Notes: generated from the letters alone by a model not told the origin. 64,000 nucleotides of DNA from an uncultured virus (IMG/VR IMGVR_UViG_3300002219_000864) (IMGVR_UViG_3300002219_000864:1-64000), one strand, 5' to 3'; counted from the first letter of the stretch, positions 1,004 to 19,311 are shown. A program made the numbers and translations.

Positions 1004-4000
1004 TCATTCCCCAACCCTAAGCAACTCCCGTTTCGTCGGTACCATGACTCCCTTTATCTGTCTGCTCATCTCCGATGACCGGATGAGTGGCACCCTGCCT
1101 GCCAGACCTGCATTGATAAGGGCCTTGTTGTATTCACCCTGCTTTTTGTATATCTTCGTCAACCCAGTATTTGTCCTGTTCGGGTTAACTGCCCAGGTCC
1201 GCAGCTCTTCATAGAGAGCGTCTTTCCTTTTTACAAAACCCTGTTCTTCCTGATACATCTCGTTGCTTCTTTCCCGTGTTAACGATTGCCGGGAACTCTG
1301 AAAACCTATGACCCTTGCTGCTGTTTCTCCTACTGTCGGTTTGTACGGCTTTATTCCCTTGTCCCACAGGACACGGGTCTTTTCTGTTACGACACCTGTT
1401 TTGGCTTCCCGTATCCCCCGTAGGATGTTTGCCGCAGCTGTGGGCAGTGTTTTCTCCAGCGCCCTTCCAGTCTGTCCAGTGCTCACGAAATGACTGGCTT
1501 TCGCGATATCCTCGGCAACACCACCTATTGCACCCGTCAGGCCCAATAGCCCTGTCGGGATACCAAGTCCAATCCCCAGCGATCCTGAAATATCGACACC
1601 GGCCAAGCCAAACGTTCCTCTACGCCCTAAAACTTCAGCGTGCTCACCAAGGTATTTCCTCGTCTTGTCCCACACGAACTTGTCCACCCCTGTGGTGATG
1701 CCCAGCATTCGGAGCATGCCGTTGATAAGCCACAGTAACTCATCTTTGAACGGCCACGCAGCTCCACCGGCGATAATCAGCGGTGCAGCCAGCGCCCAGG
1801 TAAAACCAACAATGTTGTGTTTCTTTGCGCCGAGATCATATAAGAGCTCGACATAGTTGTGGCCAAAGTTGCCATAGACATACATGGCCTGCCCTACCCG
1901 TGCACTTGCCGATGTTCCCTGAGCCCATTCCGGCATGTTTGCCTTGCCATATGCTGCATGCGCCTTATCGGTGGCCTCGATCGCCGCACTGTAAGATGCC
2001 TCCACGAGTTCCTCACCGGTCAGCCCTTCCCGTTCAAAGCGCTGTTTTGCCACCTTGTATGCCGCGAGGATCGTCGTGCCCCTGTTCCACTGCTCGGTTT
2101 TGCTGAACATGAACATGGCCACTTTCATCATCCGGTCCCACGAGCGTTCAAGACCTCCCTGCATGGCACCCAACGCATCCCTGGTGAGTTGCGGGGCGTC
2201 GTACCCTTCCCGTGTGATACGCTCGGCTACAACCTGATCCTCTGCCACCAGGGTCCTTCCCGCCATGTGTTTCGCATAGGAACGGCCCGCACTCGCGATC
2301 TCTTTGTGCACGGTCACCATACTCACCTTCCCGCCACCGGCATACTGGTGGATGGCGGCAGGGGCGGATGTCACGATGGCCGTCAGGTTGACGACTGCTG
2401 AGCGCGGGTTGAACCCTAAGAATTTCAAGGTCGCAACTGCTTTTGCATACGCCATAACCCTGTCGGCGATATCGCTGTTTCTCAGGTTCTCCTCGATGTA
2501 CCGCTTCGCGGTGTCGTATGCCTTCGGTTCATTTGTAGGGTCGATCTGCTGGAGAAGCTCGGTCGCTTTCTGAGAGACCTCGCCTTTTGCCATGCCCCCG
2601 GCAACGCCCGACGTGTAGCGCAGGTATGCCTCGATGGGGTCTTCGATGTACCCCTTGACCACCCTCCCCTTGGGAACACGGTGTATCTTGGTGGATTCGA
2701 TGCCCCGCTCGCGGATCATGGTGGCGGCCTGCTCAATCAGGTCTTCGTTGAACTTCGCGAGCAGATCGGCGCTTATCGTGCTCTTCATGCCGGTCACGGC
2801 ATAGTCAATAGACTTCTGCACGTCGATCGTCCTGATGTTCAGGTAGACCGATTCCGGCAGCCTCTGGGAATCTCTCACCTTTACCTCATGGTACCCTTCC
2901 CGCTCAAGCTCCTTTGACCGCAGCTCACTCCAGTATTTGCTCCCCTGTTCGCGGATGTAGTGACGGTCCCCAAATTCGTCTTCCTTGTACGCGGTTATGA
3001 CTATGGATCCGGTCTTTCTCAACCGCGGGAAGTAGTAACCCCGCCACTGGTCCATGACCTGCAAGGCCCCCATAATGGTCTGCCTCAGCTCGGCCTTGTA
3101 ATCCTTGTGGGCCTTCCGGAAGGACTGCTTGTGGTCGTTCCACCAGTCTTCCGCTGTCTGTTCGGTGAACGCTTCCTTCGAGAAATGGATGGCCTGGACC
3201 TCCACACCCCCGGCCCGGCTGTGCCCCATGATATAATTGATCCCTTGGTGGTAGGGCAGCCCTGCCCGCTCCTGCCTCTCCTTCCCCGAAGCGGTCCAGA
3301 AACTGTCGAATTCCTTCGTGGGCCTCACGGTAAAAATGTGGAAATTCTTGGTCCCTTCCTCTTCAAGTGCAAATGGGTCCTCTTCGTATCCCTGCTCTTC
3401 GAGCTTCTTGAGCAGTTCCTTCATGGGTGCCTGCCGTGCGTCGAGCATCTTGTCGAAAGCTGCCCTGATGAGTAGAGCAACCCTTTTGACATCCTCGGAA
3501 ACCTTCATGTTTTTGATGCGGTCTTCAAAGGTCCACTCCTTCTCACGGACCCACTCAGTGTCAGCCACGATCAGGATACGCGAAAGGTCCTCGTAACCCT
3601 TCCTGTCAGTCTTTCGAAGCCTGGCCACTTCCTCGGATACGGTCGTAGCTTTCCCGGTGTCGTTGAAATCGTAAAATAACTCGTGATACGTTTCCTGGCG
3701 GTGGTGGGCCATGACGTTGAAGAGCTGCTTCAACACCGGATGTTCATACCATAAGGGGTTCTTCAGCACCCGTTCAAGGAAATGGGCGTGCGGAAGGTTC
3801 TCCGGCATGTGTGCCATGATGGTTGCCGCTGCCGCCTTCGCGTGATCACGCAGCCATCCCTTGATCTCCAAAGGCGACGCCTTGGGCTCCGGTGGGGCAA
3901 TCGCCTCGATCTGGCGCAAGATGTCATCTAGGACCGTGCTGCCCGTCGAATGACTTTCCATCGCCTTCTTGAAGTACGTCCCGGTGGTAGCCTTCGGCAT

Positions 4001-7000
4001 GACCCCGGAATAGCTTCGCGCCCGGTCAATCAGATGGAGGATGTCGGCATCAGTCCACGCAAGGTTCGGAGCTATCCTTCTCAGCGCTGCCCGAATGATC
4101 CCAAAGACCCTGGTCCATACCGGCGTGGCTTCCCGTGCCTCCGCCATGTGGGCGATGAATTCATTGACGGCAACCCTGCGGTCATCCCTGTCGTTTAAGT
4201 CGAGGGGAAGCCTCAAGGTCCCCATTTTCTGGCCGTACCCTGTGACGATGCGATCCATGAGCGGCGTCCCCTGGTATGCTTTCGCGATCTGCTGCCAGAT
4301 GAGATCCACATCGGCATTCCGAAGAATTGCGGTGATCCCCCGATGCCCGATTGTCTCATGGATGAGGGTAACGATTGCAGACCGTGCGTTCGGGATGGAG
4401 TCAGCGATGATATAGGTGGTGTCCGTTTCCTGATCGTAGGCCCCGAAGATGGTGTCCCCCTCCTGCACATACCGCATGAACCGAACCGGCAGCTCACGAC
4501 CAGACTTGATGACCTGTACCTTCCCGATGTTCTTCCACTGATTCAAGGGCAGTGCAAGGAACTGTCTCACCTGGTCCACTGAGAACCGTGGCGTCTTCGG
4601 CGGTCGGATGTCAAAGGAGAGGTTCTTCATGTCATCCGCGGTGGTCAGCTTGAGGAACGTCGGGTCTGCGTCGGGGGTTACCATGCCCCGCTTCATCATG
4701 CTACCGCCAGCATCGATGACGTCCAAAACCTGGAGGTTGGCTGCCTTCCCAAAATTGGAAATATTCCGAGCTTCCTCTTCGAGAAGCGCTCGCTGCGGGG
4801 CATATACGATCATGTTTGAGGCGTTCCTCCGCTCAGCTTCCTTAAGCAGCATGCGCTGGATCTCTCCCCGTATCGGCGTCAGCCTCTCTATCGCAATGGT
4901 ACTGATTAATTTATTGCGAACGTCGAAAAAACCTACGGTAATATTCGGGTTATCTTCTTTGATCCCGGCGAGGTTGAATATTTTTACCGCCTCGGCAGGG
5001 GATGACGCGGCCAGTCTTCCGGTCTTCTGTTTGCTGTAACGCCGCTCAACAACGGGGATCGTTTCCGTCTGCGGGCGTTTTTTTAGCATTTTGCCGGTCG
5101 TATCCCTTACCCCGCCCTCGTAGTAGTTCATTGCCACATATTCCGTCGGTGTGACGGCCATGATCCCGTGGACCGTCGCTCCCGACCCCTGGGCGAGTCG
5201 AAACAACCTATCCCCTACATTTTTGTCCTCTTCGGACAACTCCGCTACGCCAGACGGGTGGTTGTGGATAAACCATAGCCCCGTCACTCCCTCGGTGTTG
5301 AGGGCTTGCCCGACGGCCACGACAGGCTGCACGATCGACGAGGATATACCGCCCCTGCTTATGCGGTGGACGCTGTGGACAGTACCGTCGTCTTTGGTGA
5401 GGATTGCTGCGAATGTTTCCTGGGGATCGTCGAGAAGGTTGCGGGCTATCTCACTAACATCGTCAATGCTTCTAATCTTGCTTGTTCCAGCGCGATAGCT
5501 GCCGATTCTTTCAGTGAAAACTTCTTGTTTACGCGATACGGCGCTGGGTCTTCGACGAGAAGTTCGTCCGGATTCGGCGGTGTCGGTATTGAATAGCGCA
5601 CCCTGTTCTTGTGCTTTGTCGCCATACCCAAGTTTATTCTCTGCGATACTGGTTGTCAACTGGCCGCCCCCGCCTTCCACATCGAAGATGGGGCTGATGG
5701 CCAGGATTTCTTTCATTACCGCGATCCCGTCGTCGCCGGTGGGGATAAATACCCGTGTCTTATAGCTGATGCGCTCGATGAGTGCACCGCTGTGTTCAAG
5801 CTGCGTCTCGAACCGCCACAGGGTTTCGCCGGTGACTTCGATCCGGTCCATACCCTGGGTTCTCACGCGCTTCAGCGTCCAATCGTTCGCAAGCTGTATC
5901 GTTTCCCCATTGTCCAGGATGGCGTTGTATGCCTGTTCCGGCGTGTACGCTGCAGTTGACTTGTCAACATTGAGCTTTTTCAGCACACCGTTGAGGCTCC
6001 TGTCAGGAATCAGCCGGCCCAGCAGCTTTTCGCCCGTGTTGAGCTTGAGCCGCATCACCCTGACGTGTTCCTGGGGGAGCCGGTCCCATATGGGCAAGAG
6101 GGCACCGGTAATAAGGTGGATCTTTCTCGTTTTCGTCTTCGGCACCTTGTCGTGCTGTTCACCCCATATCGCTTCGGCCTTCGCCATGTCATCAATCCGT
6201 TCGTATTTTTCCCCGTCCTTAAGGTCTTGCGCTTCCACAACATGTACAGTGCCCCGGGGACTCGTGAGGGTTACGACAGCCGTCACTTCGCCGGTGCCGG
6301 TATCGGTGGTGATCCGCTCCCTGTTTGCCGCCCATACAACACCACTCTTTTTGTTCACCACATATCCGGAGGCTGCCCACATTTTACTTGTCCGAAAATC
6401 AACGGTTACAGCGTCCTCGGAGAGTTCGATCTCGTTGTACTTTGTCTGCTCTCCCTGGGGACCGGTGTACACAATTTCTTCCCGGGTCCGTTTCGCCCCC
6501 TTTGCTAAAATGGTTTCCATGCCCGCGTCGAGGGTACCGTCTGCAGCAGCCTTTTCGATGATCTTGTCAAGGTGGGCGTCGAAGGCATTAAAAACTTCCT
6601 CTTGCCGGTCCACGGTCAGCGAAAGCAGCCTGTTCAAAAATTGGGTTATCTCGGGGATGTCGTCCCTGAGCTGACCCTGGTCGTCGGTCAGCCTCATGCC
6701 CGTTTCTTGTTCAAATTCCGCCATAGACATGTTCTCAATTCCGCCGCGGTAAATCGTGTGGATGAGCCGGATGAACGCCTGCCGCGCGTGCGAATTTTCA
6801 AGGTTGTCCTTCAGCTTGAAGATGCCCTGCGTCGCCGTGTCGCGCTGCCCCTTAGTGAGCGATCCCAATTGTTCGAGACGTCGCGCAATAGAGGAGATGA
6901 ACCGTTTCTGCCCCTTCAGGTTTGTTGTGACCAGGTGAACGTAAGGAGGCTGTTTCTGGTTGCTCCGGTGGGTCCGGCCCAACCCCTGGATAGCCCGGTC

Positions 7001-10000
7001 GGCCCTCCAGCCAGGTTGCAGTAAATAATGGTGCCGCAGCCGCTGGTTCTTCTCTGTCTTGTCCGCGTGGAAGCTCCTGCCGGTTCCAGCCGCGTCGGAA
7101 AAAACGAGAAGCTGTTTCTTGTCATTCATGAAAGCATGGATGTCGTTGAGCCCTTTCGCCTTGCTCCACCGTTCCACGACCCGCTCTTTCTCGCCCTGGT
7201 CGTTTGTTTTGTCTACAAGCCTTTTCGACCGGCCCGTTGCCTCCGCTGCCTTCTCGATGCCAAAATGGCGGATAATCATGTCAAGGGGTGCATCCGGCAC
7301 CTTCAGCATGCCGAGCCTCCGCAGCAGCGCGTCGCGCATGGCCACGGCTTCCCGGTTGATGACGGGGTTCCCCTTCGAGTCGAGGACAGGGCGCGAACGA
7401 ATATTTCCGTTGTCGTCGGTGTACTCTTCATATTGCTGGACAGGGAAGCTGTGTTCCAGGTAGTTCATCAGCCCCTCACGCGGGGTGAGATCGAGGTCTT
7501 CCAGACGTTCCCCCTCCTCCCGTCTGGCCATCGCCCGGTCGGTTTGTGCCTCGTTTGTGTTCACGAGCTGCACCACGGCTGCGTCGCCGTCGGCGAGGTT
7601 CTTCTCTATAGCCTTGATGACTGTCGGGGTCTGCATGGACGTGATGATCTGGTTGAAAAACCGCTGATGCGCGCCCCAGAATGCGCCCATGACATTCTTT
7701 CTGGCGTTGCCGTTCCTCGTGATGACCTGCCCGGTGTGGTTGGTCGCGGTTACGCCTGTCGCCTGGAGTGCGGCGTGGATGTTCTGCAACACGATCTGCC
7801 ATGACCGGGCCATCTCATCGTAAATGGCCTTCTGGTTCTCGGTCAACTCGTGCTCGATAGTTTCGTACTTCACCCCGTCAAAGGAAAGGTTCCGGGCACT
7901 ATAGGATCCCATGGCCTTGAGCCCCTGGGCGATCATTTCCATGCCGGCGATACCAGCACCGGAAATCTGCTCGATGAAATTCCGCTTGTTGGAAAAAGGC
8001 GTTCCCTTCCCCCACAACCCGAGGTGATCGCAGTAGGAAAGGTTCGCAACTTCCGTTGCACCCGTTGCTGACGCATAGACAACCCGCGAATTGTATAGAC
8101 GCGACTGCAGCTCAACGCCAACGACCGCCTTCATGGACGGCTTTTTCGTCCCCCGCTTCCCCCTGGTAGACAGAGCGTTTCCCATGTTGTGGGATTCGTC
8201 AAATGCTATGACACCGTCGAAATCCTCACCAGTCCACTCGACGACGGGGTCAATCCGGCGCGCCGCGCCTTTTTTGTACTTTAACGTGTCGTAGCTTATG
8301 AAAAGGATACCCTCTTTCTGCTTGATGGGCTGGCCGAATTTCACGGTGGCATAATCTATTACCAGGTTCGGGTCCATGCCGAGTGCTATAAGATCGCGCT
8401 TTGCGTCGTGGATAAGGTCCGTATTCTGGCTTATCCAGAGAGCCCTGCGCCGGCCCCGATTCCAGTTATCGAGGATGATGCCGGCGATCTCCCGGCCCTT
8501 GCCCACTCCGGTGCCATCACCGATGAAGAATCCCTTGCGGAATGTGTGGAACGTTTTGCCTTCCTGGCTCCCGCTGCTTGCAACGTTGCCTTGTGCGTCA
8601 AGATAGACGCCGGAGTCGAGGGTTTCCCCGTGGGCCTGTCCGGCCATGGTGATAGCTTCGAGCTGGACGTCGCTTAATGCACCGGTTTCAGCGAGTTTCT
8701 TGTCGATATTTGGCACATACCGAGTTTTTGGAGCTTTTACGGTGGCCATCGCCGCACTTTCAACAAGTTCCGCCGGGTGCGGCTGCGCCCCATCAATTTT
8801 TATGGAGGGCGTGTATTCCTCGAAGATGTTGCCCGATTCGAGGTCTTCGTCTGAATATTCTTCGGTTTGTTGAACGGTAAGGGCTGGCTCGGGGGTTAGT
8901 AATTTGCCGCTTCCAGCATGCTCGTCAGCTGGTCTACTACCGCCCACGCCAGGTCTTCCGCTGATATCGTCGGCAGCTCTCTCTGGTCCGCCAGGTCCCC
9001 GTCCCTCTGGAGCAGTCTCCAGGCCCGTTTCGGTTCCAGCCCCGCCAGCTCCTCGAAGAAGGGGTATACCTCCTGGCCCCGGACGCTGTTGAGCGGGACC
9101 CTGCCCGCGTTCCACTGTTCCTCCACCAGCTGGAGGCAATACAGCATCGACGGGTCGGGATCCTTGAGAAACTTCTTCGCTGCCTGGTTGAGCGGATGGT
9201 TGTTCTGTGACACTGTTTCTCGCATCGCGTACTCCTTTCAGGAGGGCAACGGCATGTTTGATGTCGCTGACTTCCTCTTGTATTACTGTAGCATTCATTT
9301 TCGATTTGTCAATCACGATCAAGCGGTTGTCATAGGTGGTGCCGTATTTTTTGTAGCCCTCGCCGGAGATGGTGATATCGGCGATTACGTCATTGGTGAC
9401 ATCGATGTTGTCCAGCCACTCGTTGAAAGTTTTCGATTCGCCGAACAACCCCTTGCCGGTGAGCACCACAAGACGCCCACCTGGCTTAAGCCTCGACAAC
9501 GCCTGGCCAATATGCCTGATGAGGTTCTCGGGGCTTCTGCGCCCCTGCATCCGGCCTGCCGTTGCAGAAAAGGGCGGGTTCATGATGATTACGGTGGGCT
9601 TTATGTGATCTGGAAGGATGTTATTGAGCTGCTCGCCGTTCTCGGTGAACACCTGCCCGAAACCCATCTGCCGCAACATGCTTGCCCTCCGCTGCGAAAG
9701 TTCATTAACGTACACCTTCGCCCCTGCGTTCCGGGCAAACACCGCGAGGCCGCCCACACCTGCCGATGGCTCCAGGACCGTCTCCCCCGGCTTGATGTTC
9801 GCCACCCATGCCATGAGGAAAGCCAAATCCGGGGGTGTCGAGAACTGCTGGTACTCGTCCATCTCCTTTGTTCTGAAGCCATGCTGCGAGGGGATCTTGT
9901 CAAGGACGTGTTCCCGTATGCTGTCAATCGTGTCACGGGCGTCGATGACCATGCCTCTCGTGGGATCGTATAAGCGCTGGCCCTGTCCGAGGTAGCGGTT

Positions 10001-13000
10001 TATACCCAGCTCCATGGCATCGAAGAGGTCCTTCCAGGTGAACGCTCCGCTGGCAATGGTGCCGCCGTACGCCTCTTCCCCCCACTTCATGAGCTGCTCA
10101 CGGGTGAACGTTTCCTGGTTGGCGAGCGCGGCATCGACCTTTGCCATGATGGCGCGGGCGGCCTTTATCTTGTCGGCGTCCATGCGTTCTTCGGTTGGTG
10201 ATGGTGCCTGCGGTTGCTTGGGTTGGGTTCCTTGCCCGGTTGCATTTGGTGCGGCTGTTGTTTGTGTGCTCTCGTCTGTTGTTAGAAATCGAGGATCTTT
10301 ACGCTCTACATCAAACGTTATTCCGTTTCTGGTAGGAGTAAGGCCAACTGGTTCGGTTATCCGGATGGGTCCCTCCATGATGGAGCGGACGCCCTTCTCG
10401 TCCTCGAATATCTCCTGGCCATACTTGTTCTTCCCGATAGCCTTTGGTATCAGTGCCCCCCTGCCCGTCGTTAAGGGTGACTTCTCCGTTCCCCCTTTCT
10501 TGGATTGCCATGGCACCATGTCCGGGTGACTATACATAGCATCGAAAGCCTTGGTGATCTTCTCCGCCGGATCCTCGGTACCGTAAAATGACCATACCTT
10601 CTTAGGGCCGTACCATATTCCTCTCGCCTTCTTGATCGCGTCCTTGTAGTTCCTGGTGTTGCCCCCAAGGTTCCACACGGGATGCCCGTTCTTGGTCGTT
10701 GTCTTTACCAGGGTCAACCCGACGCTTTTCAGCTTGTCGTAAGCGTCTGATGTGCCGGTAACGGTTCCGGTTTCCGGTGTGTGCGCCGCCTGTTGCTGCG
10801 GTGGCTGTTCCTTCGGCTTTGGCCTGATTTTCTCCGCCTCTTCCGGGTATTGACTCGCCCACGCATCAAAAGCGTCCTGGTACTTCTGCGCGTCCTTGTC
10901 GTAGCTTGCAGCGACACGTAAATGAGAAGCCCTGTTAGAATCTTTTCGTGCCCGGGTAGCTGCTTCCCGTGAGTTCTGCGCGTGTTTCTTGCTGTACGAG
11001 ATCATGCCAAAGACGTTCTCGGGTGTCTGCCACCGGCCATCGAAGTAAATATCCTTCACGAGCTTGCCGGTAAACGGTTCTGTTTCGCGTTCAAGTTCCT
11101 TTGCCTGCATGGACGGAAAGCTCAATCCGTTGTCGGTTTCCACTTCATAGGTGACGGTGTGCGATGATTGTCCCCCGAAAATGGGTGTCATGGTGTAGCC
11201 TCCTACCGCCTTGACGACGCCGTGCCTGCCTCGCATGGACAAACCGTAATGCTTATCGTTGATTACAACCCGGTCGCCGGCTTTGTACGTTTCGGGCTTC
11301 GGTGTCTCCTTTGGTGCCTCCGCTTCCTGTTTTTTGGTCATAAGGTCGTGGCGTTTGATGTACTTGAGTACCGCCTCGGCGAAACTCTTGGCGTCCCAGG
11401 TGTTCAGATATACCCTTTGCGATTCCGACAGTGGCGCATTACTGCTCAATATCTCATTAACCACGTCGCCGTGTGCTTCATTAGCCCATTTTTCAAGGGC
11501 TATCAATATATTTCGTTCGCCATTGTCAGCGTTCAGATACGGCTTTGCCTTCTCTATTGTTAGGTCGCGGATCCTCTCGGAAAGAGACATGTCAAACGTT
11601 TTGCCCTTTCCCGCTGGCTTCCCTGCATCTGCCATCAGCTTCTTGTCGATGGCCTCGACGATCTTCGAGGTGTACCAGTTTCCCTCGAATTTCACGCCCA
11701 ACATTCCGGCATACATACGGGCCTTGATAAGATGGTCGCGCCAGCCGTCGGGAGGATCTATTTTGGCTTTCTTCCCCTGGGCGATCTCTGCGGCCACGTC
11801 CCACGCCTTTTTTTCCGACGGGAATATCATTACAGTCGGCAAGAATTCCATGGAGTCATTGTCTCTGATGGATACGGAAAAGCTATTGCCGTTGATGTTA
11901 CCAGCGACGAATATTTCGAGGTTGTTTTCCTTGTCTGGTATGGTGCCAAGAAGTTCTGTCGGGCCAAAAGGCGGCTTCTTTGCCCCGGTTTCGGAGGTTG
12001 TGCCCGTGGGATTTATACCCACGGGCGTTTCCTTTCCTTCCATCGCCCTAGATGCTGCCCGCTGTTCTGCCGTCGGCATCCTCAAATTTCCTGTTGTTGT
12101 ATGCAGTTCATCCTTTATATTGTTGGCTTTTTCTGTTTCTCCCCCCTCGATCGCTTCTTTTATGGCCTTCTTGGTTTCGTCAACCACCGCCTCGTAATCG
12201 GAGAACCTTGGGCCAACCAACTTCTTGAGCCTCGCCCCCAACTCTTCGTCAACATCCCCTATGTTTTCTGCAAGAGCGCTGGACACCGGCCCCCACGAAA
12301 ATCCCTCCTCGGCGGGGCCTTCTTCGATTTCCTTCGGGGCTTCCGTTTTTGCCACTTCCGGTACAGGCTTATTTTGTTCCTCGGCATACTGCGCGGCTGC
12401 CGCTTCGTAAAACTGTTTCGCCTTCCCTTCCGGCTGCGCGTCAACGGCACCAAAGAGATACGCCTTCACATCGAGGCCCTTAGTCGTGGCCCGCTTTGCG
12501 ATCTCTTCAAGGATCGGCCGTAGCTTCTGGTACAGCTCCTGCTTGATACCCTCAGTCTTACCGTAGTCGATACGGGTATCCGATACCTTTCCCTCATCTT
12601 CTTCGATGAAGTGGTTGATTATATCGAATGCGTCTGTGACCAGCTCGTTGATTGATTTCTTTGAAAGGTCCTCGGTTGGTGGAACGTTGATCTTTTGAGG
12701 CTTATTCTTTGCCGCGAGGGCTTCCGCCAGCTTCTTCTTCTGCTCTTCTTCTTTTTCCCGCTCGGTTTGAAATACTGGCTTGGGCCGTGTGAACAGTTCC
12801 GCTTTCGGTTCTTTTGTGGTTTTGAATTCCCCCTGCTTCACGGGCTGGTTGCCGGAGAGGGTGAAGATGTCGTTGGTGTTGAAAAGTTCCCCGTCTGTCG
12901 TGGGGGCTGGCCGCTCGGTTTTGGATTTCTTTACTTGTTCTTTGAGGGCCGCAAGTCTTTCAGCAAACTCTTTGCCAGCGATTTGATTATCACTTGCTGC

Positions 13001-16000
13001 TTCAAGGCCGCTAACAATTTGGCCGATCTCGGTGTCACTGAACCCTTCTTCATATAATTCCTCCTTTAAACCTATAATATTGATCTCAGTTGTGTCAACA
13101 ATCGCCTCAATATCCTTTTCCGGGATAAAACCGTCATCCTGGAGCTGCTCTTCGGTCAGCGGTATTGCTGCCGTTTCAATCTCCTGTTCCTGTTCCTGTG
13201 CTTTCCCGCCCTTATTCTGAAAACGCGCCATTTCGTCCGTTATAAGGTCGAACACCTCCGACTCGGTCCACTCCACCGTGCCCCGTTCCTGTCCAGCCAA
13301 ACCCGAAGGCGGCTGTTTCATGGGAATTTCCCCGTTGTTCATGGCCTCGTTGAACAATTGGGTAAATGAGTTCCAGCGGGAATCGCTGCCGCCGGCAAGG
13401 TCCTGTCCTTTCCTTATTTTCTGCAAAAGCGGTAAAAAGTACCGGTATTGTTTAAAAAACGTGTAGCATGGAAAGGGGGTATCTTCGGTGATAGCCTTGG
13501 GCTTCTTTGTTGTCTTCGGCGTTTTCTCCTTCGCCTCGGCTGCCGCTGACCCTATCTTTTCACGCTCCTTGATATTGCGCATCAAATCGTCACGGGCACC
13601 CCGTTCCGTCATGGCAACACCGATCACATCCTTATGCGGCCCTTCGGTAACGGTCGCCATATACCCGCCTTTATATGTGTCGCCGGTCGTAATTTTCCTG
13701 AGAGTATGGGGTGGAAGCTCTTTCTTCTTCGCCTTGGCCTGCGCTGCCTCTTCCTCTTTCGTTACTTCGTGGATCCCCATTTTAGCGGGTGCTTTTTTTG
13801 TCTGTGCCCCGGCCTCAAGGCTGGATAACCAGGAACGTAAAATGTTGGCTTCTTTTTTCACGGTCGCTGATGATTCGTCTTTCACGCGCTTCTCTAAGGC
13901 ATTCCGATAGTCCTGTATGGCTCCAAGCAAGGCAGCCTCGCGGGTGTCATATTGCTTGCGTTCGTAGATCCCGGGGTGCCGGCCGTGGCCGCCGTTGGCA
14001 ATGTTGATATTATACCCATACGTCCAGGTGCCGTTCGGGGCTTTGCCGAGGGTTATGCCGTTCGACGAAACATAGCCCTTTTTGGATGGTGGCGCCTCTA
14101 TCTCTTCGGTTTGTAGCTTATACTTTGCCCTGCCTAAATTGTCTCTCTGCTTTTCGGTAAATCCCCATATCGTTTCTGCAAGTTCGTCAGCCTGGGCGTT
14201 GTCAGCTTCCGTGTGAGTTAATCCTTCCGGCATTTTCGTTGTTGACATAGCGCCGGCATAGGGGTGCTTTTGTCTGATTGCTTTAACGGCGGCAGAAATA
14301 TCCCCATTTTCTTGCTTGGCGGTCTGCGATTCTTTCGGCACTTTCCCGCCGAATTGCCGTGCTATATCGGGATATTTGGCAAGGACATCCGGCGGAATAG
14401 GATGCTTGAGCTGCAATGCTACCGCCAGCGATGTTTCGCTCCATTCTCCTTTATTTTCTTTGTCAGTAACGGCTTTCTGGTCAGTTATTTTCTTAAATTC
14501 ACTTTCCGGGGCTGCGCTGGCCATCGAAATTAATTCATTCGGCTGCTTATTTGGGTCTTCATCCCACTTTACGTATAGTCTTATGGTGGGCTGGTCTTTG
14601 GTGGGCTGATATATTTGAGCCACCGTTCCGGTTCGCCCTCCCCGTGTTACCCTGTCTCCTATTGAAAAAGCCGAGCTGGTCGATTTATCGGCCGATTCTT
14701 GTTTAGTGCCACTAAACTTTTCGTCATCTTTTAAATTGGTCGTTGCCGTGGTGTCAGAGGAAGGTGCTTCTGCCCCCTGCTCGCCTGTGTCGCTCGCGAG
14801 AGAGAGTAGTTTATTTGACCGTTCAATTTCTTTTTCATCCGGTGCTATATATCCGCCGGGAGTAAGAGCTTTTCCCTCAATGGTTTTCGTGTCAAGCTCC
14901 AAAACATCGTCTGAAGACACTGTCGATTGCGGTTCAACGATATCCGGTACGGTCATCTCATCGAGTTCGTCCATGGGTTCGCTTGGCAATATCGCTGCCT
15001 CTTCCGCTGCTTTTTGCGCTTCCTGTGCCATCCGTATCCCGTCAGCCATGCCTGATGGAAGGTTGGCCATACGCGCGTTGTCGAGAATGACACGGTCCAT
15101 GCGCTGTATTTCCGGGTGTTGTTCACCCAGAACTGCCGCTGCCTTCTGTCTGATGACTCCTGCCTGCTCGGTCGTGATCTGTCCGTTTTCTAAAGAGTTT
15201 TTTACCTGTTCGACAATAGCGGTTGCCTGCTGGTCGCCAGGTGGTAACGGCGGTGTCGGCTGTGGAGATGGTGGCATCGTTGGCGGCTGCGTTCCTGGTG
15301 GGGTCATCGGGGGTTGTACTGCTGGCTGTCCCATTATTGGCGGTTGCGTTGCCGGTTGCCCGCCCAATTCTCCCGTGACTGGTTCGCCGGCCTTTGTTAC
15401 ATCCTTCGTTCCAGCTTCATAAGTCTTCCGAGCGATTGCCCCAGTTGCTCCGCCGATACCAAAGCCACCCACTGCCCCGGCTGCCGCTGCATCGACCGCC
15501 TCCAGAAATTGTTTCCTGGTCAACAAGTCGCTTGGGTCAATACCGTATTGTTCTGCATATGCCTGGAAGAATTCCTCCGATCCTTCACCGAGCATCTGTG
15601 TCAGCGCGGACTGGCTTATGCGGTTCCACAACCCCTTCTTCGCAAATTCAGCAACGTCGGGACCAAATTTGAGCAGCTTGGCCGTTGCTTTCTCAGTGCC
15701 GAGTTCCTCGAACTTCGACGCGATGAATATTGCGGCCAGTCCCCGAAGTGGGCTGAGCTCCCTGGTTTCCCCTTTCTCAAGGCGTTCAATCTGGCCACCG
15801 AGGATCTCTCCCCCTTCCATCATGGCAATGGGTACGTCCATGGGTTTGAGCTTCGCCCAATCCACAAGATACGACAATGCCTTCTTGCCCAGGGTCGTCT
15901 TCGCCACCTCCGGCGCAACCTTGGCCATCTGGACAGCCCTGCCCTGGAGCATAAACGGTGCGGTTATCGCTACCTGCGCCCCCATCTGCCCCAGTGCCCC

Positions 16001-16525
16001 GGCCCCCCACTTGAAAAAGCCTTCCGGATCCTTTATGTCATAAATGGACCCGACTTCCGGCTCAACTTTCTTTAACGGCTCATCCCAATACTGCCGCACC
16101 TGTTTCCCGAACCGCGTCGTCGCACCTTCCTTTGGTGGCCCAGGAGGCGGTTCATAGGTCGGCCCGTTCGGATCCGCTTTTGGTATAGGTGTCCCTAAAT
16201 GCTCCGGCCCAATCTCGTCTATACCCCACTCCGGAGGCGAGCCTGTGTACTGGTCGCCTATTCGTCCGAGGTACTCGATGGCAGAGCCTATGCCCTTGTT
16301 CGCCTGGAGCCATCCGCGGGCAATGCCTTTGACGCCTTCCCGCGTGATGCCCACCATGCTCTCCCCGATCTTCCGGTAGATGCTTCGGTCGTCCGTGTCG
16401 GGGCCGAACGTTTCCGTTGTCCCGGCCAGTTCATCAAGAAATCCTCGTTTTGCCGGTTTTTCTGCTTTTTTTCCCTCTATTGTCGTTGTTCCAGCGAGTT
16501 CATCAAGAAAGTTGTCGTTAGCCAC
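1004..16525 (-). CDS. Giant (5173 aa) DarB-like polyvalent virion/ejection protein: N6-adenine MTase, Strawberry-notch SF2 helicase, RadC/JAB, zincin-like HExxH peptidase, helical C-terminal region
   Basis: GTG start with GGAGG SD. MTase motifs VLEPSAGVGG (~9780) and NPPF (~9575). SBNO motifs GDGTGVGKGRE (~8510), DESH (~8195), QGLGRTHRSNQ (~6975). JAB HNHPSG...S.ED (~5260). HETIGH (~4350). Last gene of the structural module. Confidence 0.9.
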   Translation of the reverse strand: MANDNFLDELAGTTTIEGKKAEKPAKRGFLDELAGTTETFGPDTDDRSIYRKIGESMVGITREGVKGIARGWLQANKGIGSAIEYLGRIGDQYTGSPPEWGIDEIGPEHLGTPIPKADPNGPTYEPPPGPPKEGATTRFGKQVRQYWDEPLKKVEPEVGSIYDIKDPEGFFKWGAGALGQMGAQVAITAPFMLQGRAVQMAKVAPEVAKTTLGKKALSYLVDWAKLKPMDVPIAMMEGGEILGGQIERLEKGETRELSPLRGLAAIFIASKFEELGTEKATAKLLKFGPDVAEFAKKGLWNRISQSALTQMLGEGSEEFFQAYAEQYGIDPSDLLTRKQFLEAVDAAAAGAVGGFGIGGATGAIARKTYEAGTKDVTKAGEPVTGELGGQPATQPPIMGQPAVQPPMTPPGTQPPTMPPSPQPTPPLPPGDQQATAIVEQVKNSLENGQITTEQAGVIRQKAAAVLGEQHPEIQRMDRVILDNARMANLPSGMADGIRMAQEAQKAAEEAAILPSEPMDELDEMTVPDIVEPQSTVSSDDVLELDTKTIEGKALTPGGYIAPDEKEIERSNKLLSLASDTGEQGAEAPSSDTTATTNLKDDEKFSGTKQESADKSTSSAFSIGDRVTRGGRTGTVAQIYQPTKDQPTIRLYVKWDEDPNKQPNELISMASAAPESEFKKITDQKAVTDKENKGEWSETSLAVALQLKHPIPPDVLAKYPDIARQFGGKVPKESQTAKQENGDISAAVKAIRQKHPYAGAMSTTKMPEGLTHTEADNAQADELAETIWGFTEKQRDNLGRAKYKLQTEEIEAPPSKKGYVSSNGITLGKAPNGTWTYGYNINIANGGHGRHPGIYERKQYDTREAALLGAIQDYRNALEKRVKDESSATVKKEANILRSWLSSLEAGAQTKKAPAKMGIHEVTKEEEAAQAKAKKKELPPHTLRKITTGDTYKGGYMATVTEGPHKDVIGVAMTERGARDDLMRNIKEREKIGSAAAEAKEKTPKTTKKPKAITEDTPFPCYTFFKQYRYFLPLLQKIRKGQDLAGGSDSRWNSFTQLFNEAMNNGEIPMKQPPSGLAGQERGTVEWTESEVFDLITDEMARFQNKGGKAQEQEQEIETAAIPLTEEQLQDDGFIPEKDIEAIVDTTEINIIGLKEELYEEGFSDTEIGQIVSGLEAASDNQIAGKEFAERLAALKEQVKKSKTERPAPTTDGELFNTNDIFTLSGNQPVKQGEFKTTKEPKAELFTRPKPVFQTEREKEEEQKKKLAEALAAKNKPQKINVPPTEDLSKKSINELVTDAFDIINHFIEEDEGKVSDTRIDYGKTEGIKQELYQKLRPILEEIAKRATTKGLDVKAYLFGAVDAQPEGKAKQFYEAAAAQYAEEQNKPVPEVAKTEAPKEIEEGPAEEGFSWGPVSSALAENIGDVDEELGARLKKLVGPRFSDYEAVVDETKKAIKEAIEGGETEKANNIKDELHTTTGNLRMPTAEQRAASRAMEGKETPVGINPTGTTSETGAKKPPFGPTELLGTIPDKENNLEIFVAGNINGNSFSVSIRDNDSMEFLPTVMIFPSEKKAWDVAAEIAQGKKAKIDPPDGWRDHLIKARMYAGMLGVKFEGNWYTSKIVEAIDKKLMADAGKPAGKGKTFDMSLSERIRDLTIEKAKPYLNADNGERNILIALEKWANEAHGDVVNEILSSNAPLSESQRVYLNTWDAKSFAEAVLKYIKRHDLMTKKQEAEAPKETPKPETYKAGDRVVINDKHYGLSMRGRHGVVKAVGGYTMTPIFGGQSSHTVTYEVETDNGLSFPSMQAKELERETEPFTGKLVKDIYFDGRWQTPENVFGMISYSKKHAQNSREAATRARKDSNRASHLRVAASYDKDAQKYQDAFDAWASQYPEEAEKIRPKPKEQPPQQQAAHTPETGTVTGTSDAYDKLKSVGLTLVKTTTKNGHPVWNLGGNTRNYKDAIKKARGIWYGPKKVWSFYGTEDPAEKITKAFDAMYSHPDMVPWQSKKGGTEKSPLTTGRGALIPKAIGKNKYGQEIFEDEKGVRSIMEGPIRITEPVGLTPTRNGITFDVERKDPRFLTTDESTQTTAAPNATGQGTQPKQPQAPSPTEERMDADKIKAARAIMAKVDAALANQETFTREQLMKWGEEAYGGTIASGAFTWKDLFDAMELGINRYLGQGQRLYDPTRGMVIDARDTIDSIREHVLDKIPSQHGFRTKEMDEYQQFSTPPDLAFLMAWVANIKPGETVLEPSAGVGGLAVFARNAGAKVYVNELSQRRASMLRQMGFGQVFTENGEQLNNILPDHIKPTVIIMNPPFSATAGRMQGRRSPENLIRHIGQALSRLKPGGRLVVLTGKGLFGESKTFNEWLDNIDVTNDVIADITISGEGYKKYGTTYDNRLIVIDKSKMNATVIQEEVSDIKHAVALLKGVRDARNSVTEQPSAQPGSEEVSQGSRPVDAVLPPAGGGTVERGQGPAQQRPGPGGIPLLRGAGGAGTETGLETAPEGRGPGGPERAADDISGRPGVGGSRPADEHAGSGKLLTPEPALTVQQTEEYSDEDLESGNIFEEYTPSIKIDGAQPHPAELVESAAMATVKAPKTRYVPNIDKKLAETGALSDVQLEAITMAGQAHGETLDSGVYLDAQGNVASSGSQEGKTFHTFRKGFFIGDGTGVGKGREIAGIILDNWNRGRRRALWISQNTDLIHDAKRDLIALGMDPNLVIDYATVKFGQPIKQKEGILFISYDTLKYKKGAARRIDPVVEWTGEDFDGVIAFDESHNMGNALSTRGKRGTKKPSMKAVVGVELQSRLYNSRVVYASATGATEVANLSYCDHLGLWGKGTPFSNKRNFIEQISGAGIAGMEMIAQGLKAMGSYSARNLSFDGVKYETIEHELTENQKAIYDEMARSWQIVLQNIHAALQATGVTATNHTGQVITRNGNARKNVMGAFWGAHQRFFNQIITSMQTPTVIKAIEKNLADGDAAVVQLVNTNEAQTDRAMARREEGERLEDLDLTPREGLMNYLEHSFPVQQYEEYTDDNGNIRSRPVLDSKGNPVINREAVAMRDALLRRLGMLKVPDAPLDMIIRHFGIEKAAEATGRSKRLVDKTNDQGEKERVVERWSKAKGLNDIHAFMNDKKQLLVFSDAAGTGRSFHADKTEKNQRLRHHYLLQPGWRADRAIQGLGRTHRSNQKQPPYVHLVTTNLKGQKRFISSIARRLEQLGSLTKGQRDTATQGIFKLKDNLENSHARQAFIRLIHTIYRGGIENMSMAEFEQETGMRLTDDQGQLRDDIPEITQFLNRLLSLTVDRQEEVFNAFDAHLDKIIEKAAADGTLDAGMETILAKGAKRTREEIVYTGPQGEQTKYNEIELSEDAVTVDFRTSKMWAASGYVVNKKSGVVWAANRERITTDTGTGEVTAVVTLTSPRGTVHVVEAQDLKDGEKYERIDDMAKAEAIWGEQHDKVPKTKTRKIHLITGALLPIWDRLPQEHVRVMRLKLNTGEKLLGRLIPDRSLNGVLKKLNVDKSTAAYTPEQAYNAILDNGETIQLANDWTLKRVRTQGMDRIEVTGETLWRFETQLEHSGALIERISYKTRVFIPTGDDGIAVMKEILAISPIFDVEGGGGQLTTSIAENKLGYGDKAQEQGALFNTDTAESGRTSRRRPSAVSRKQEVFTERIGSYRAGTSKIRSIDDVSEIARNLLDDPQETFAAILTKDDGTVHSVHRISRGGISSSIVQPVVAVGQALNTEGVTGLWFIHNHPSGVAELSEEDKNVGDRLFRLAQGSGATVHGIMAVTPTEYVAMNYYEGGVRDTTGKMLKKRPQTETIPVVERRYSKQKTGRLAASSPAEAVKIFNLAGIKEDNPNITVGFFDVRNKLISTIAIERLTPIRGEIQRMLLKEAERRNASNMIVYAPQRALLEEEARNISNFGKAANLQVLDVIDAGGSMMKRGMVTPDADPTFLKLTTADDMKNLSFDIRPPKTPRFSVDQVRQFLALPLNQWKNIGKVQVIKSGRELPVRFMRYVQEGDTIFGAYDQETDTTYIIADSIPNARSAIVTLIHETIGHRGITAILRNADVDLIWQQIAKAYQGTPLMDRIVTGYGQKMGTLRLPLDLNDRDDRRVAVNEFIAHMAEAREATPVWTRVFGIIRAALRRIAPNLAWTDADILHLIDRARSYSGVMPKATTGTYFKKAMESHSTGSTVLDDILRQIEAIAPPEPKASPLEIKGWLRDHAKAAAATIMAHMPENLPHAHFLERVLKNPLWYEHPVLKQLFNVMAHHRQETYHELFYDFNDTGKATTVSEEVARLRKTDRKGYEDLSRILIVADTEWVREKEWTFEDRIKNMKVSEDVKRVALLIRAAFDKMLDARQAPMKELLKKLEEQGYEEDPFALEEEGTKNFHIFTVRPTKEFDSFWTASGKERQERAGLPYHQGINYIMGHSRAGGVEVQAIHFSKEAFTEQTAEDWWNDHKQSFRKAHKDYKAELRQTIMGALQVMDQWRGYYFPRLRKTGSIVITAYKEDEFGDRHYIREQGSKYWSELRSKELEREGYHEVKVRDSQRLPESVYLNIRTIDVQKSIDYAVTGMKSTISADLLAKFNEDLIEQAATMIRERGIESTKIHRVPKGRVVKGYIEDPIEAYLRYTSGVAGGMAKGEVSQKATELLQQIDPTNEPKAYDTAKRYIEENLRNSDIADRVMAYAKAVATLKFLGFNPRSAVVNLTAIVTSAPAAIHQYAGGGKVSMVTVHKEIASAGRSYAKHMAGRTLVAEDQVVAERITREGYDAPQLTRDALGAMQGGLERSWDRMMKVAMFMFSKTEQWNRGTTILAAYKVAKQRFEREGLTGEELVEASYSAAIEATDKAHAAYGKANMPEWAQGTSASARVGQAMYVYGNFGHNYVELLYDLGAKKHNIVGFTWALAAPLIIAGGAAWPFKDELLWLINGMLRMLGITTGVDKFVWDKTRKYLGEHAEVLGRRGTFGLAGVDISGSLGIGLGIPTGLLGLTGAIGGVAEDIAKASHFVSTGQTGRALEKTLPTAAANILRGIREAKTGVVTEKTRVLWDKGIKPYKPTVGETAARVIGFQSSRQSLTRERSNEMYQEEQGFVKRKDALYEELRTWAVNPNRTNTGLTKIYKKQGEYNKALINAGLAGRVPLIRSSEMSRQIKGVMVPTKRELLRVGE
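5446..5625 (-). CDS. Candidate overprinted 59-aa ORF inside the giant gene (+1 frame), probably leaderless
   Basis: MATKHKNRVRYSIPTPPNPDELLVEDPAPYRVNKKFSLKESAAIALEQARLEALTMLVR*; ATG lies 5 nt after a TTGACA-17-TAAACT promoter. Confidence 0.5.
   Translation of the reverse strand: MATKHKNRVRYSIPTPPNPDELLVEDPAPYRVNKKFSLKESAAIALEQARLEALTMLVR
5631..5659 (-). promoter_or_regulatory. Intragenic sigma70-like promoter
   Basis: Minus strand TTGACA (5659-5654), 17 bp ACCAGTATCGCAGAGAA, TAAACT (5636-5631). Confidence 0.65.
8896..9225 (-). CDS. Candidate overprinted 109-aa protein in the MTase-helicase linker of the giant gene (+1 frame)
   Basis: SD AAAGGAG (9238-9232) 6 nt before ATG. Product has globular helical composition, while the host frame here is low-complexity G/P/R-rich. 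Confidence 0.65.
   Translation of the reverse strand: MRETVSQNNHPLNQAAKKFLKDPDPSMLYCLQLVEEQWNAGRVPLNSVRGQEVYPFFEELAGLEPKRAWRLLQRDGDLADQRELPTISAEDLAWAVVDQLTSMLEAANY
9285..9312 (-). promoter_or_regulatory. Intragenic sigma70-like promoter with extended -10
   Basis: Minus strand TTGACA (9312-9307), 16 bp spacer ending in TGC, TACAGT (9290-9285); about 60 nt upstream of the nested ATG at 9225. Confidence 0.6.
12931..13053 (-). CDS. Candidate overprinted 40-aa basic peptide inside the giant gene (+1 frame)
   Basis: AAAGGAGG (13067-13060), 6 nt, then ATG: MKKGSVTPRSAKLLAALKQQVIIKSLAKSLLKDLRPSKNK*. TTGTTGACA at 13101-13093 and TATTAT at 13079-13074 upstream. Confidence 0.4.
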   Translation of the reverse strand: MKKGSVTPRSAKLLAALKQQVIIKSLAKSLLKDLRPSKNK

Positions 16526-16539
16526 GCTTTGTCCTCCCG

Positions 16540-17910
16540 TTACCGTACACCCTTAAATTGTTTCCAGCCCTGCTTTATGCTGTCCTCGCTGTAGCCTGCC
16601 GCTATGAGCCTGTCATACATGGCTTTTTGGCCAAGTGTGCCGGCATTATCGCGGAAATAATCAGCCGCTTTGGAAATGTTGCCGGTTTTATTTGCCTTGT
16701 AATCCTGTTTCCCGTTTCCGCCGATAGCTCCGCCGGCCTTGGGCTGTTTGCGGTACCGTGCCCAGTGATCGGGGTAGTCTTCTTGCATGAGTGATTCAAG
16801 GCTGTTGATCTGCCCCTGGATCGTGGCCTTTGCCGCCTCGATCTGATCTTGCGGTATGATCTGTTGCGTAATCGGGTCAACGCCCTTCTGGATGCCGGCC
16901 ATGGATTTGTAGAGGCCGTTGAGCTGGCCCAGGTGCATTCTAAATTCCCGTGTATCAGCCGCGCTGCCCCTGCCATTTCCGCCGCTCCCTCCACCGCCGT
17001 CGGGTTTATGGATGCGGTATGGTGCGCCGAATGGTACGTCGTGGTTGCCCGTCTGCGGGTTCCACTGGAATTTCTGCTGCATATTCGGGCCGATGGGCTT
17101 CTCGACGTACATCTGCGGTGTCGGCACCTTCCCTCCGGCTGCGGTTGGCTTCTGGACCATCTCAAACGTTCCGTTTTTGTTCCAGCGGACAAGGCCGTCG
17201 CCGCCTATTTTCATGAAGCTCCACTCACCCTTTTGGGTAATATCCCCCGGCTTGACCTGGCCATATTTCTTTGTGATCCACGGGTTGGAGTTCCATGCCT
17301 TCATGGCTCCCTGTGGTGATATCTTCGCAATCGCAAAAATGTTGTCGAGTTCGGCCTTCTGAATCTTATTGGCCGCGTCAAACTGGCCATTCGCCAGGAG
17401 CGTGTCATGGATCTTCATCATCATCTTGCCGCGTTCTTGAAGTGCCGGTTCGTTTTGCGGCGGGTTCGTCACCGGGTCGTTGTTCTGGAGTTCTACTGGC
17501 CCCGGTATGGATTGCTGCCCTGGTGCCTGCGGTGGTGCTTGAGGTGGTGGCTGCGCTATGGCCGTTCCGGACCCGCTGTCAACGTTCGGCTGTCCGATTG
17601 TCGTCACGGTTGGTACCGATGGAGCAGGGGTACCCGACGTCAGCAACAATGGAGACACCTGGGGTTGCTGTGGCTGCCCGCCGCCGATAGCCGGACCTGG
17701 CGGAAGGTTCGCCACCGCGTTCCGGTATTCGTCAACGTGGCCCTTTATTGTCGCCAGGAGTTCCTCTTCCCGCTGCGCTTTTCTCAGCTGGAGGGCGTGG
17801 GTGTCTTTTCTCATTCCCAGTTCTTCGTTGCGGATCGCGCGTTCATCTATTTCGGGGATCCCCTTGTTGAGTGCGTGGGTAAAACCTATGGACACGTCTT
17901 TTAAATTCAT
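16540..17910 (-). CDS. Putative internal virion/ejection protein
   Basis: 456 aa, Q/G/P-rich with helical stretches; position between tail genes and the giant gene is typical of podoviral ejection proteins. Confidence 0.6.
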   Translation of the reverse strand: MNLKDVSIGFTHALNKGIPEIDERAIRNEELGMRKDTHALQLRKAQREEELLATIKGHVDEYRNAVANLPPGPAIGGGQPQQPQVSPLLLTSGTPAPSVPTVTTIGQPNVDSGSGTAIAQPPPQAPPQAPGQQSIPGPVELQNNDPVTNPPQNEPALQERGKMMMKIHDTLLANGQFDAANKIQKAELDNIFAIAKISPQGAMKAWNSNPWITKKYGQVKPGDITQKGEWSFMKIGGDGLVRWNKNGTFEMVQKPTAAGGKVPTPQMYVEKPIGPNMQQKFQWNPQTGNHDVPFGAPYRIHKPDGGGGSGGNGRGSAADTREFRMHLGQLNGLYKSMAGIQKGVDPITQQIIPQDQIEAAKATIQGQINSLESLMQEDYPDHWARYRKQPKAGGAIGGNGKQDYKANKTGNISKAADYFRDNAGTLGQKAMYDRLIAAGYSEDSIKQGWKQFKGVR

Positions 17911-19298: not shown

Positions 19299-19311
19299 TG
19301 TCCGTCTCCTT

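Follow-up and report, generated by a model that had tools for sequence, protein, structure and literature searches.

A probable layer of nested small genes inside the giant polyvalent-protein gene of a podophage-like provirus

Can the largest gene in a stretch of viral DNA hold further genes, written on the same strand in another reading frame? This question is raised by 64,000 nucleotides (nt) from an uncultured virus (IMG/VR record IMGVR_UViG_3300002219_000864, positions 1-64000; hereafter the window), in which the largest gene (15.5 kb; hereafter the giant gene) encodes a polyvalent protein with several enzyme domains. An earlier reading of the window, made from its letters alone (the sequence-only reading), had proposed a hidden coding layer of three units, each composed of a promoter and a small open reading frame (ORF), overprinted inside this gene. 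We refer to the three ORFs as U1, U2 and U3 (Table 1). Our answer is a graded one: U2 is almost certainly a gene, it is very probable that the nested coding layer is real in the sense that at least U2 plus one more ORF are genes, and the chances that all three are genes are slightly better than even. Taken singly, U1 is very likely a clade-restricted gene (six sequences, including the more distant relative L005), and U3 is probably one as well, restricted to five sequences.

Conservation and selection in the nested frames

The three ATG-initiated ORFs were found exactly where the sequence-only reading had placed them, wholly inside the giant gene, on the same strand and in a different frame, together with the signals claimed for them, namely a TTGACA box upstream of each, two Shine-Dalgarno (SD) sequences at 6-nt spacing (U1 and U2) and one unit that looks leaderless (U3). 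Their start codons all lie at coordinates 0 mod 3 and the codons of the giant gene start at 1 mod 3, so the common +1 frame had been read correctly. This shared frame is unremarkable alone: the window's giant gene has 30 ATG ORFs of 30 amino acids (aa) or more in alternative frames, and 23 of them are in +1.

Table 1. Positions of the giant gene, the nested ORFs and their putative expression signals in the window (pI, isoelectric point).
Feature	Coordinates	Strand	Details
Giant polyvalent-protein gene	1004..16525	-	5173 codons, GTG start
U1, +1-frame ORF	12931..13053	-	40 aa, pI 11.4; ATG at 13053
U1 SD, AAGGAGG	13060..13066	-	6 nt before ATG
U1 promoter-like, TTGACA-N16-TATAGG	13071..13098	-	TTGACA 13098-13093; weak
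U2, +1-frame gene (almost certain)	8896..9225	-	109 aa, pI 4.7, all-helical (model); ATG at 9225
U2 SD, AAAGGAG	9232..9238	-	6 nt before ATG
U2 promoter-like, TTGACA-N16-TACAGT	9285..9312	-	TTGACA 9312-9307; TG before -10 box
U3, +1-frame ORF	5446..5625	-	59 aa, pI 9.6; ATG at 5625
U3 promoter-like, TTGACA-N17-TAAACT	5631..5659	-	TTGACA 5659-5654; 5 nt to ATG

Conservation was assessed in four viral contigs (L001-L004) that contain the whole giant gene at 78-90% nt identity, and an ORF was counted as intact when its ATG and at least 90% of its length were kept. Only four of the 30 alternative-frame ORFs are intact in all four homologues, and three of these four are U1, U2 and U3, which keep start, stop and an identical length in every one of them; start, stop and length of U1 and U2 are also kept in L005. 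Because the sequence-only reading had chosen its three ORFs from promoter and SD motifs alone, before there were conservation data, this is an independent test of them, and the alignment that it had called for came out in their favour: 3/3 of the chosen ORFs are intact, vs 1/27 of the rest. The remaining intact ORF (6335-6219, +2 frame) varies in length and has a dN/dS (omega) of 1.88, and is read as chance. Two further candidates, a +1 ORF at 9882-9601 (93 aa) and a +2 ORF at 7802-7476 (108 aa), were rejected as genes, each being broken in at least one homologue. So were the antisense open frames of 150 codons or more, of which 0/15 are intact in all four homologues.

The clearest sign of selection on a nested frame lies in U2. 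Substitutions at giant-frame codon positions 1/2/3 number 1220/840/3510 over the whole gene vs 34/11/11 within U2, a pattern in which the wobble position is that of the +1 frame; by Nei-Gojobori counting, the omega of U2 is 0.31 in +1 vs 1.40 in the giant frame, and 0/3993 other sliding windows have a +1 omega as low. The +1 omega of U1 (0.66) and of U3 (0.65) fall in the 3.3% and 2.8% tails of these sliding windows, respectively, which is suggestive. In a blind 40-codon scan of +1 omega, the three deepest minima of the whole gene are 9288-8793 (0.17, U2), 5658-5433 (0.49, U3) and 13134-12903 (0.52, U1), and all remaining dips are at 0.68 or above. It could be supposed that none of the three ORFs is translated and that such signals come from a mutational cold spot, phage recombination or RNA or DNA structure, and alignment codons 2450 to 3800 of the giant gene do evolve more slowly overall. 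However, a cold spot lowers all positions equally and cannot reverse the codon-position pattern seen in U2, nor does it yield a confident fold or free-standing homologues; for U2 this explanation is already contradicted by codon positions, omega, profile matches, fold and free-standing relatives, and for the three ORFs together we find it hardly credible.

The base composition of the three segments was also compared between frames. In +1, the GC content by codon position is.37/.38/.68 in U1,.66/.38/.79 in U2 and.53/.41/.54 in U3 (the giant gene has 0.58/0.43/0.64 gene-wide in its own frame), and the coding GC pattern of these segments is found in +1, not in the giant frame. When the GC content at third codon positions (GC3) of the giant frame is subtracted from that of +1, sliding windows as extreme as U2 number 0/4519, while those as extreme as U1 and U3 make up 0.27% and 4.9%, respectively. 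In a further null model, synonymous codons were resampled with each homologue's giant protein kept, and the probability of an ORF intact in all four homologues was P=0.008 in the case of U1 and P=0.07 in that of U3; the corresponding value for U2 (P=0.40) carries no information, since changes in U2 mostly affect the giant frame as well.

An explanation that has to be weighed more seriously accepts only U2 as a gene, and takes U1 and U3 for open frames that owe their preservation to low local divergence, to constraint on the giant protein or to a nucleic-acid element, without functional products. Several points speak for it and weigh against a layer of three genes. The nulls for U3 are borderline (P=0.07 and the 4.9% tail), the sliding windows are overlapping and not independent, and the ORF at 6335-6219 illustrates that intactness alone can be chance. 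For U1 (0.77 vs 0.77) and U3 (0.67 vs 0.70) alike, conservation is equal in the two frames, which also fits a shared non-coding constraint, and their evidence comes from only five to six related sequences. Homologues of the two were not found outside the clade: a word-based protein search gave no match for either, the U3 profile matched 0/401 genomes in a six-frame search, and the distant relative L013 has no U3-like ORF at the aligned linker. The AlphaFold2 model of U3 is poor, with a predicted local distance difference test (pLDDT) score of 74.9 and a predicted template modelling (pTM) score of 0.34. The 401 genomes were taken from the phylum to which the genome holding L011 belongs; L011 is the one contig of this phage in that genome, and covers U2 but not U1 or U3.

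Against the restriction to U2 stand the second and third deepest minima of the blind scan, which fall exactly on U3 and U1, the low resampling P and the GC3 signature of U1, and the contrast in intactness between the ORFs chosen by motif and all others. Moreover, the ATG of U1 is kept through giant-frame changes among Y, N and H, always as NAT-G, and its SD (AAGGAGG) is invariant in 6/6 sequences. We therefore consider it unlikely that U2 is the only gene of the three, and U1 and U3 would be younger genes, restricted to their clade; from its sequence, the U1 product is predicted to be a single basic amphipathic helix. The hidden coding layer of the sequence-only reading is thus strongly upheld for U2 (selection, GC, fold and relatives), and for U1 and U3 it draws on intact ORFs, omega minima and GC.

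The U2 family at the methylase-helicase junction

The giant protein contains an N6-methylase motif (NPPF, read in the translation) near aa 2316, a Strawberry-notch-type helicase at aa ~2582-3337 (Pfam AAA_34, E 2.8e-107, and Helicase_C_4, E 4.7e-82) and a RadC-like JAB domain at aa ~3685-3800 (Pfam RadC, E 1e-13). With several conflict-type enzyme domains in one phage polypeptide, a methylase-helicase dyad among them, it is a polyvalent protein, as is DarB of phage P1, which has such a dyad too. All three ORFs had been assigned to linkers between domains, and this applies to U2 (giant aa 2434-2543, between NPPF and the start of AAA_34 at 2582) and to U3 (giant aa 3634-3693, just ahead of RadC), while U1 (giant aa 1158-1198) falls in a stretch without Pfam domains to measure it against.

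A U2-type ORF in +1 recurs at the methylase-helicase junction of other giant genes, namely in L005 (giant protein 66% identical to that of the window), in L013 and L014 (42-49% identity in the shared core), in L025/L037 (inside a 3949-codon ORF in a bacterial genome) and, weakly (E=0.028), in L006. SD-like purine runs precede the U2 ATG in L005, L013, L014, L025 and L006, and the U2 SD is kept in the clade. The giant frame over U2 in the distant giant genes is rich in G, P, R and S and unalike between lineages. On the same nucleotides, the U2-frame identity is higher than the giant-frame identity in 10/10 deep pairs, although it must be held against this count that the alignment was built on the U2 frame, which favours that frame. 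A pattern match in L016 was discarded as a chance match.

A U2 profile made from eight sequences and run against 1.84 billion representative proteins gave 31 matches at E<=1e-3, mostly of 104-132 aa and aligned end to end. The family pattern is M-x-E-x-L-x-x-N-x-x-P-L-N-Q-x-A-K ... P-D-P-x-x-L-Y-C-L-Q-L, and the initiator Met is invariant in the 26-row family alignment, from which AlphaFold2 produced an all-helical model with pLDDT 92.3 and pTM 0.84. As modelled, U2 is a folded, acidic, all-helical protein of an unnamed family. Matches of the family to curated families were 0 in Pfam (26 + 7 members), PHROGs (26), NCBIfam (8) and PADLOC (9), and fold searches ended in noise-level best hits (Foldseek against the PDB, E 1.8; VIA wide, Z 4.1; BFVD, E 0.68), while the ESM Atlas search gave a best score of 0.79 and no lead. 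It counts against our view of U2 that no fold or family match in these searches points to a function.

The search of nested peptides by tBLASTn, suggested in the sequence-only reading, returned nothing when run for U2 against phage and plasmid records, and the word-based protein search with U2 found only two near-identical copies. Among ten public protein clusters of the family that were looked up, nine are single-member, and the longest contigs measure 508-10,540 bases. The family surfaces only as singletons or tiny clusters on short contigs because gene callers drop nested ORFs; its near-invisibility in the protein collection is as expected if they call the ORF only in places where the enclosing gene happens to be truncated.

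In the six-frame search, the U2 family was present in 15/401 genomes: it is free-standing in 12, nested in the giant frame in 2 and covered by a 431-codon ORF in 1, with one further place (a second match in G001) left out of this count. Over nine of the free-standing loci the giant-gene frame is open for only 3-98 codons, and the other three have no overlapping ORF of at least 200 codons. Met stands at the aligned start, or a few residues from it, in 7/9 free-standing relatives, and the free-standing copies are set among ordinary chromosomal genes. In the tree, 6/7 free-standing sequences form one clade (99/100) and the nested ones are scattered in an unresolved radiation; as the tree is unrooted, it gives no direction of transfer.

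The neighbours of the free-standing genes recur in part. Ppx/GppA lies upstream in four genomes (L034 in G184, L035 in G002, L036 in G349 and L041 in G272), separated from the U2 gene by a hybrid histidine kinase in the first three, whereas in L041 Ppx/GppA is the immediate upstream neighbour; in two other genomes cytochrome c552 and AsmA/DUF748 lie downstream. The Ppx/GppA neighbourhood might hint at a cellular role of the family. The idea of an Hpt phosphotransfer role, which came from the relatives behind hybrid histidine kinases, was given up, the alignment having no invariant His. An Rz1-type outer-membrane spanin was likewise rejected, given that U1 and U3 are without Cys, that the sole Cys of U2 is residue 30 in the LYCLQL helix, and that there is no hydrophobic leader. 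As for the single covered copy (L038, G230:C109), its 431-codon ORF (2241-3533) has no Pfam match, spans the whole U2-type gene and ends ~80 nt past it, with a Prim-Pol/DnaB_C gene nearby; this ORF may be the remnant of a giant gene in a mobile element.

The three ORFs had been described as overprinted inside a virion gene, and for U2 this direction is probably wrong: in free-standing relatives the giant frame is closed, and where it is open over U2 it is of low complexity and has the omega of 1.40 given above. Because selection is asymmetric, because of the composition and because the giant frame is closed in free-standing copies, we infer from the sequences that the small gene is the primary, constrained frame at U2, and that the giant linker is probably a secondary reading kept open across it. 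The giant frame would then cross U2 as a low-complexity, G/P/R-rich linker between methylase and helicase, open but unconstrained in sequence, and the simplest origin of such a linker would be the fusion of a methylase gene and a helicase gene by reading across the intervening U2 gene.

Frameshift products are common in phage structural genes, and one could imagine that U2 is reached from the giant frame by a programmed +1 frameshift, with a truncated methylase-U2 fusion as the product; the overlapping frames are on the same strand and an SD-like run lies just upstream of U2. However, a TGA in the +1 frame stands five codons before the U2 ATG and leaves only four codons for a shift, the N-terminal Met is invariant in the 26 aligned family members, most free-standing relatives (7/9) start at or near the same point, and the SD of U2 has the canonical 6-nt spacing. 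We regard the frameshift as very improbable, and U2 is treated below as a gene with its own start.

Putative internal promoters and possible routes of expression

The sequence-only reading had further proposed that the nested ORFs are transcribed independently, from internal promoters open to host RNA polymerase in a lysogen or soon after injection. TTGACA occurs 11 times on the sense strand of the giant gene vs a mean of 4.7 in 1000 synonymous-codon shuffles, and only the three sites before U1-U3 have a -10 box that matches in at least 4/6 positions at 16-17 nt. ORFs of at least 40 aa with an upstream TTGACA and such a -10 box were observed three times vs a shuffle mean of 0.017 and a maximum of 1 (1000 shuffles). 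The shuffled-codon null that had been asked for thus agrees with the proposal, with the reservation that its thresholds were set after seeing the data, which makes the p-value optimistic. In the promoter scan, the boxes of U2 and U3 rank highest among the coding-strand sites (10/12 positions each), and both have the sigma-70-type features of 16-18 nt spacing with A2 and T6 in the -10 box. The U2 boxes are conserved as TTGACA-N16-TA(C/A)A(G/C/A)T in 6/6 sequences and in L011, and the U3 boxes as TTGACA-N17-TA..CT-N5-ATG in 5/5 sequences, the giant-frame residues under the U3 -10 box changing.

A number of results weigh against functional internal promoters. The U1 -10 box is without T6 and was not reported by the promoter scan, and the U1 -35 box, kept in 5/6 sequences, is lost in L004. 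The U2 -35 box is imperfect in L006 and absent in the distant L013 and L014, where the SD and ATG remain. Gene-wide, promoter-like sites are not above the shuffles (7 vs a mean of 8.2), and no terminator-like site follows any of the three ORFs on the coding strand. Such results agree with an explanation in which the nested genes are real and have no promoters of their own, being translated only from the giant late mRNA via internal ribosome-binding sites, with the TTGACA and -10 boxes as by-products of conserved codons (Ile-Asp-Lys, Leu-Thr). It fits this explanation that the conserved I-D-(K/R) of the methylase end underlies the U2 -35 box (replaced by TTCGAT or ATCGAT in L013 and L014), that 10/11 TTGACA sites are in the same codon phase, and that several of those without any ORF are also conserved.

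On the other side, the combination of TTGACA with a well-placed -10 box is confined to the sites ahead of U1-U3, the shuffles gave at most one such unit, the two best coding-strand sites of the scan are those of U2 and U3, and the -10 boxes keep TA...T while giant-frame residues change. Above all, U3 is without SD and its ATG follows the TAAACT box at leaderless distance in 5/5 sequences, and its translation has no evident route other than a leaderless transcript (an alternative upstream TTG start is possible at 5631). If U3 is real, at least one internal promoter would work. In phage lambda, PRM gives rise to a leaderless cI mRNA, and U3 resembles it in that its ATG stands at the expected transcript start of a sigma-70-type promoter, here one predicted from sequence. 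Taken together, translation from the giant mRNA alone is quite plausible, at somewhat less than even chances, and the chances that the nested genes have promoters of their own come close to even, without reaching it; for U3, if it is real, expression from its own promoter would be likelier. Apart from these units, a promoter-like site matching in 10/12 positions (TTCATA-N18-TATAAT, 13049-13078) was noted on the + strand, over the U1 start region on the opposite strand.

How the nested ORFs may be expressed can be outlined as follows. U1 and U2 could be translated from internal SD-ATG sites on the long late structural mRNA, for which no promoter is needed, and U3 could come from a leaderless transcript initiated within the giant gene. 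The sigma-70-type boxes of U2 and U3, conserved in the clade at synonymous positions, would allow expression with the structural operon off. The products may perhaps be small cytoplasmic accessory or regulatory proteins of the producing or lysogenic cell, outside the injected polyprotein, which is a weak suggestion.

Setting of the giant gene, known parallels and meaning

The record, 78,958 bases (79 kb) long, is classified as a provirus. The giant gene is the last gene of a same-strand structural module with a P22-like portal, a capsid protein and an SU10-type adaptor, and the source element is a podophage-like provirus; from its place at the end of the portal-capsid-adaptor module, the giant protein is probably packaged in the virion and injected. 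By megablast, the giant gene had no match in phage and plasmid records, and a tyrosine integrase (PF00589) was not found in the provirus record. The coding strand of the giant gene is purine- and A-rich, and the terminator-like sites within 1004-16525 are all on the + (antisense) strand (16/16), with 0 on the coding strand. Linkers of the giant protein share a short motif of the form (Q/E)G(A/S/E)LF(N/G)T, seen at aa ~1205-1215 and ~3643-3650 ('GELFNTND', 'QGALFNTD'), and 'QGSLFG', of the same form, occurs twice in a linker of the distant relative L013; the motif might serve for docking or cleavage.

The adaptor gene is separated from the giant gene by six ORFs of 215-927 aa without Pfam match (16540-22178 and 23628-27055, - strand), presumably tail or ejection proteins. 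At 39705-62597 (+ strand) lies a block of very large genes with a GC content of 0.41-0.54, vs about 0.55-0.60 in the phage module. It contains an SNF2-type helicase (953 aa), an Eco57I-type methylase (1569 aa), a Sacsin/HATPase protein (1834 aa), DUF932, a DEAD helicase with MrfA Zn-binding domain (2104 aa) and a UvrD-type helicase (715 aa), and it looks like a DISARM-like defence island, in the provirus or in the host flank.

Genes embedded in others on the same strand are known from phages. The lambda spanin gene Rz1 is embedded in Rz (PMC5295617), a small gene wholly inside a larger one. U1-U3 resemble Rz1 as small same-strand, +1-frame ORFs with their own starts inside a larger gene. Unlike Rz1, which is a lipoprotein and partners the product of its enclosing gene, they are without hydrophobic signal or lipobox, and unlike Rz1/Rz there are three nested ORFs in one 15.5-kb polyvalent gene, with free-standing cellular relatives for U2. 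Mycobacterium phage Applejack carries an HNH endonuclease placed out of frame inside its DNA methylase gene (PMC12613952), and the likeness to U2 is that of an out-of-frame gene within a phage DNA methylase gene. In contrast to this mobile, homing-type nuclease, U2 has no HNH or other Pfam match and has been passed down together with the methylase-helicase junction in deep lineages.

Polyvalent proteins with a DNA methylase-helicase dyad were described by Iyer et al. in 2017 (PMC5512222). The enclosing gene is like theirs, with methylase, Strawberry-notch-type helicase and RadC-like JAB in a phage, whereas nested reading frames are not described in the available text of that article, where the word 'overlapping' occurs 0 times. 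In Pseudomonas phage Fc02, the overlapping genes olg1 and olg2 are transcribed in the lysogen, and one has exclusion activity (PMC9936078). These are also small overlapping phage ORFs in alternative frames, with prophage-state expression shown for Fc02 and predicted here from sequence alone, but olg1/olg2 adjoin the repressor gene, unlike U1-U3, which lie inside a virion gene. Overprinted genes of small viruses, including Microviridae, have been reviewed (PMC8227390), and as there, two proteins come from one DNA stretch, one frame ordered and the other disordered, under asymmetric selection. Overprinting in small viruses is read as a means of compressing tiny genomes, in contrast to a 79-kb provirus, and for U2 it is the linker of the long gene that looks secondary. 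A full-text literature search found no description of nested genes in polyvalent proteins, which is not proof that none is in print.

A wider reading can be put forward, which we hold to be rather unlikely as a whole. According to it, giant injected polyvalent proteins would carry a conserved layer of small genes in their linkers, with host-type promoters of their own, made while the virion gene is silent (in the prophage or in early infection). U2 would be related to a small protein of bacteria and would have held its place at the methylase-helicase junction from a time before the giant genes diverged, acting on the host or controlling the neighbouring enzyme domains, and methylase and helicase would have been fused across the intervening gene.

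Gene callers drop ORFs inside longer ORFs, and anyone dissecting or expressing polyvalent anti-defence proteins should be aware that their linkers can conceal separate products. The U2 family adds a confidently folded protein family without named relative or fold match, and the giant gene probably offers a clean case, found in nature, of a second gene lying under the linker of a long protein. Should the internal promoters be active, a late virion gene would double as a platform for prophage-state or early expression.

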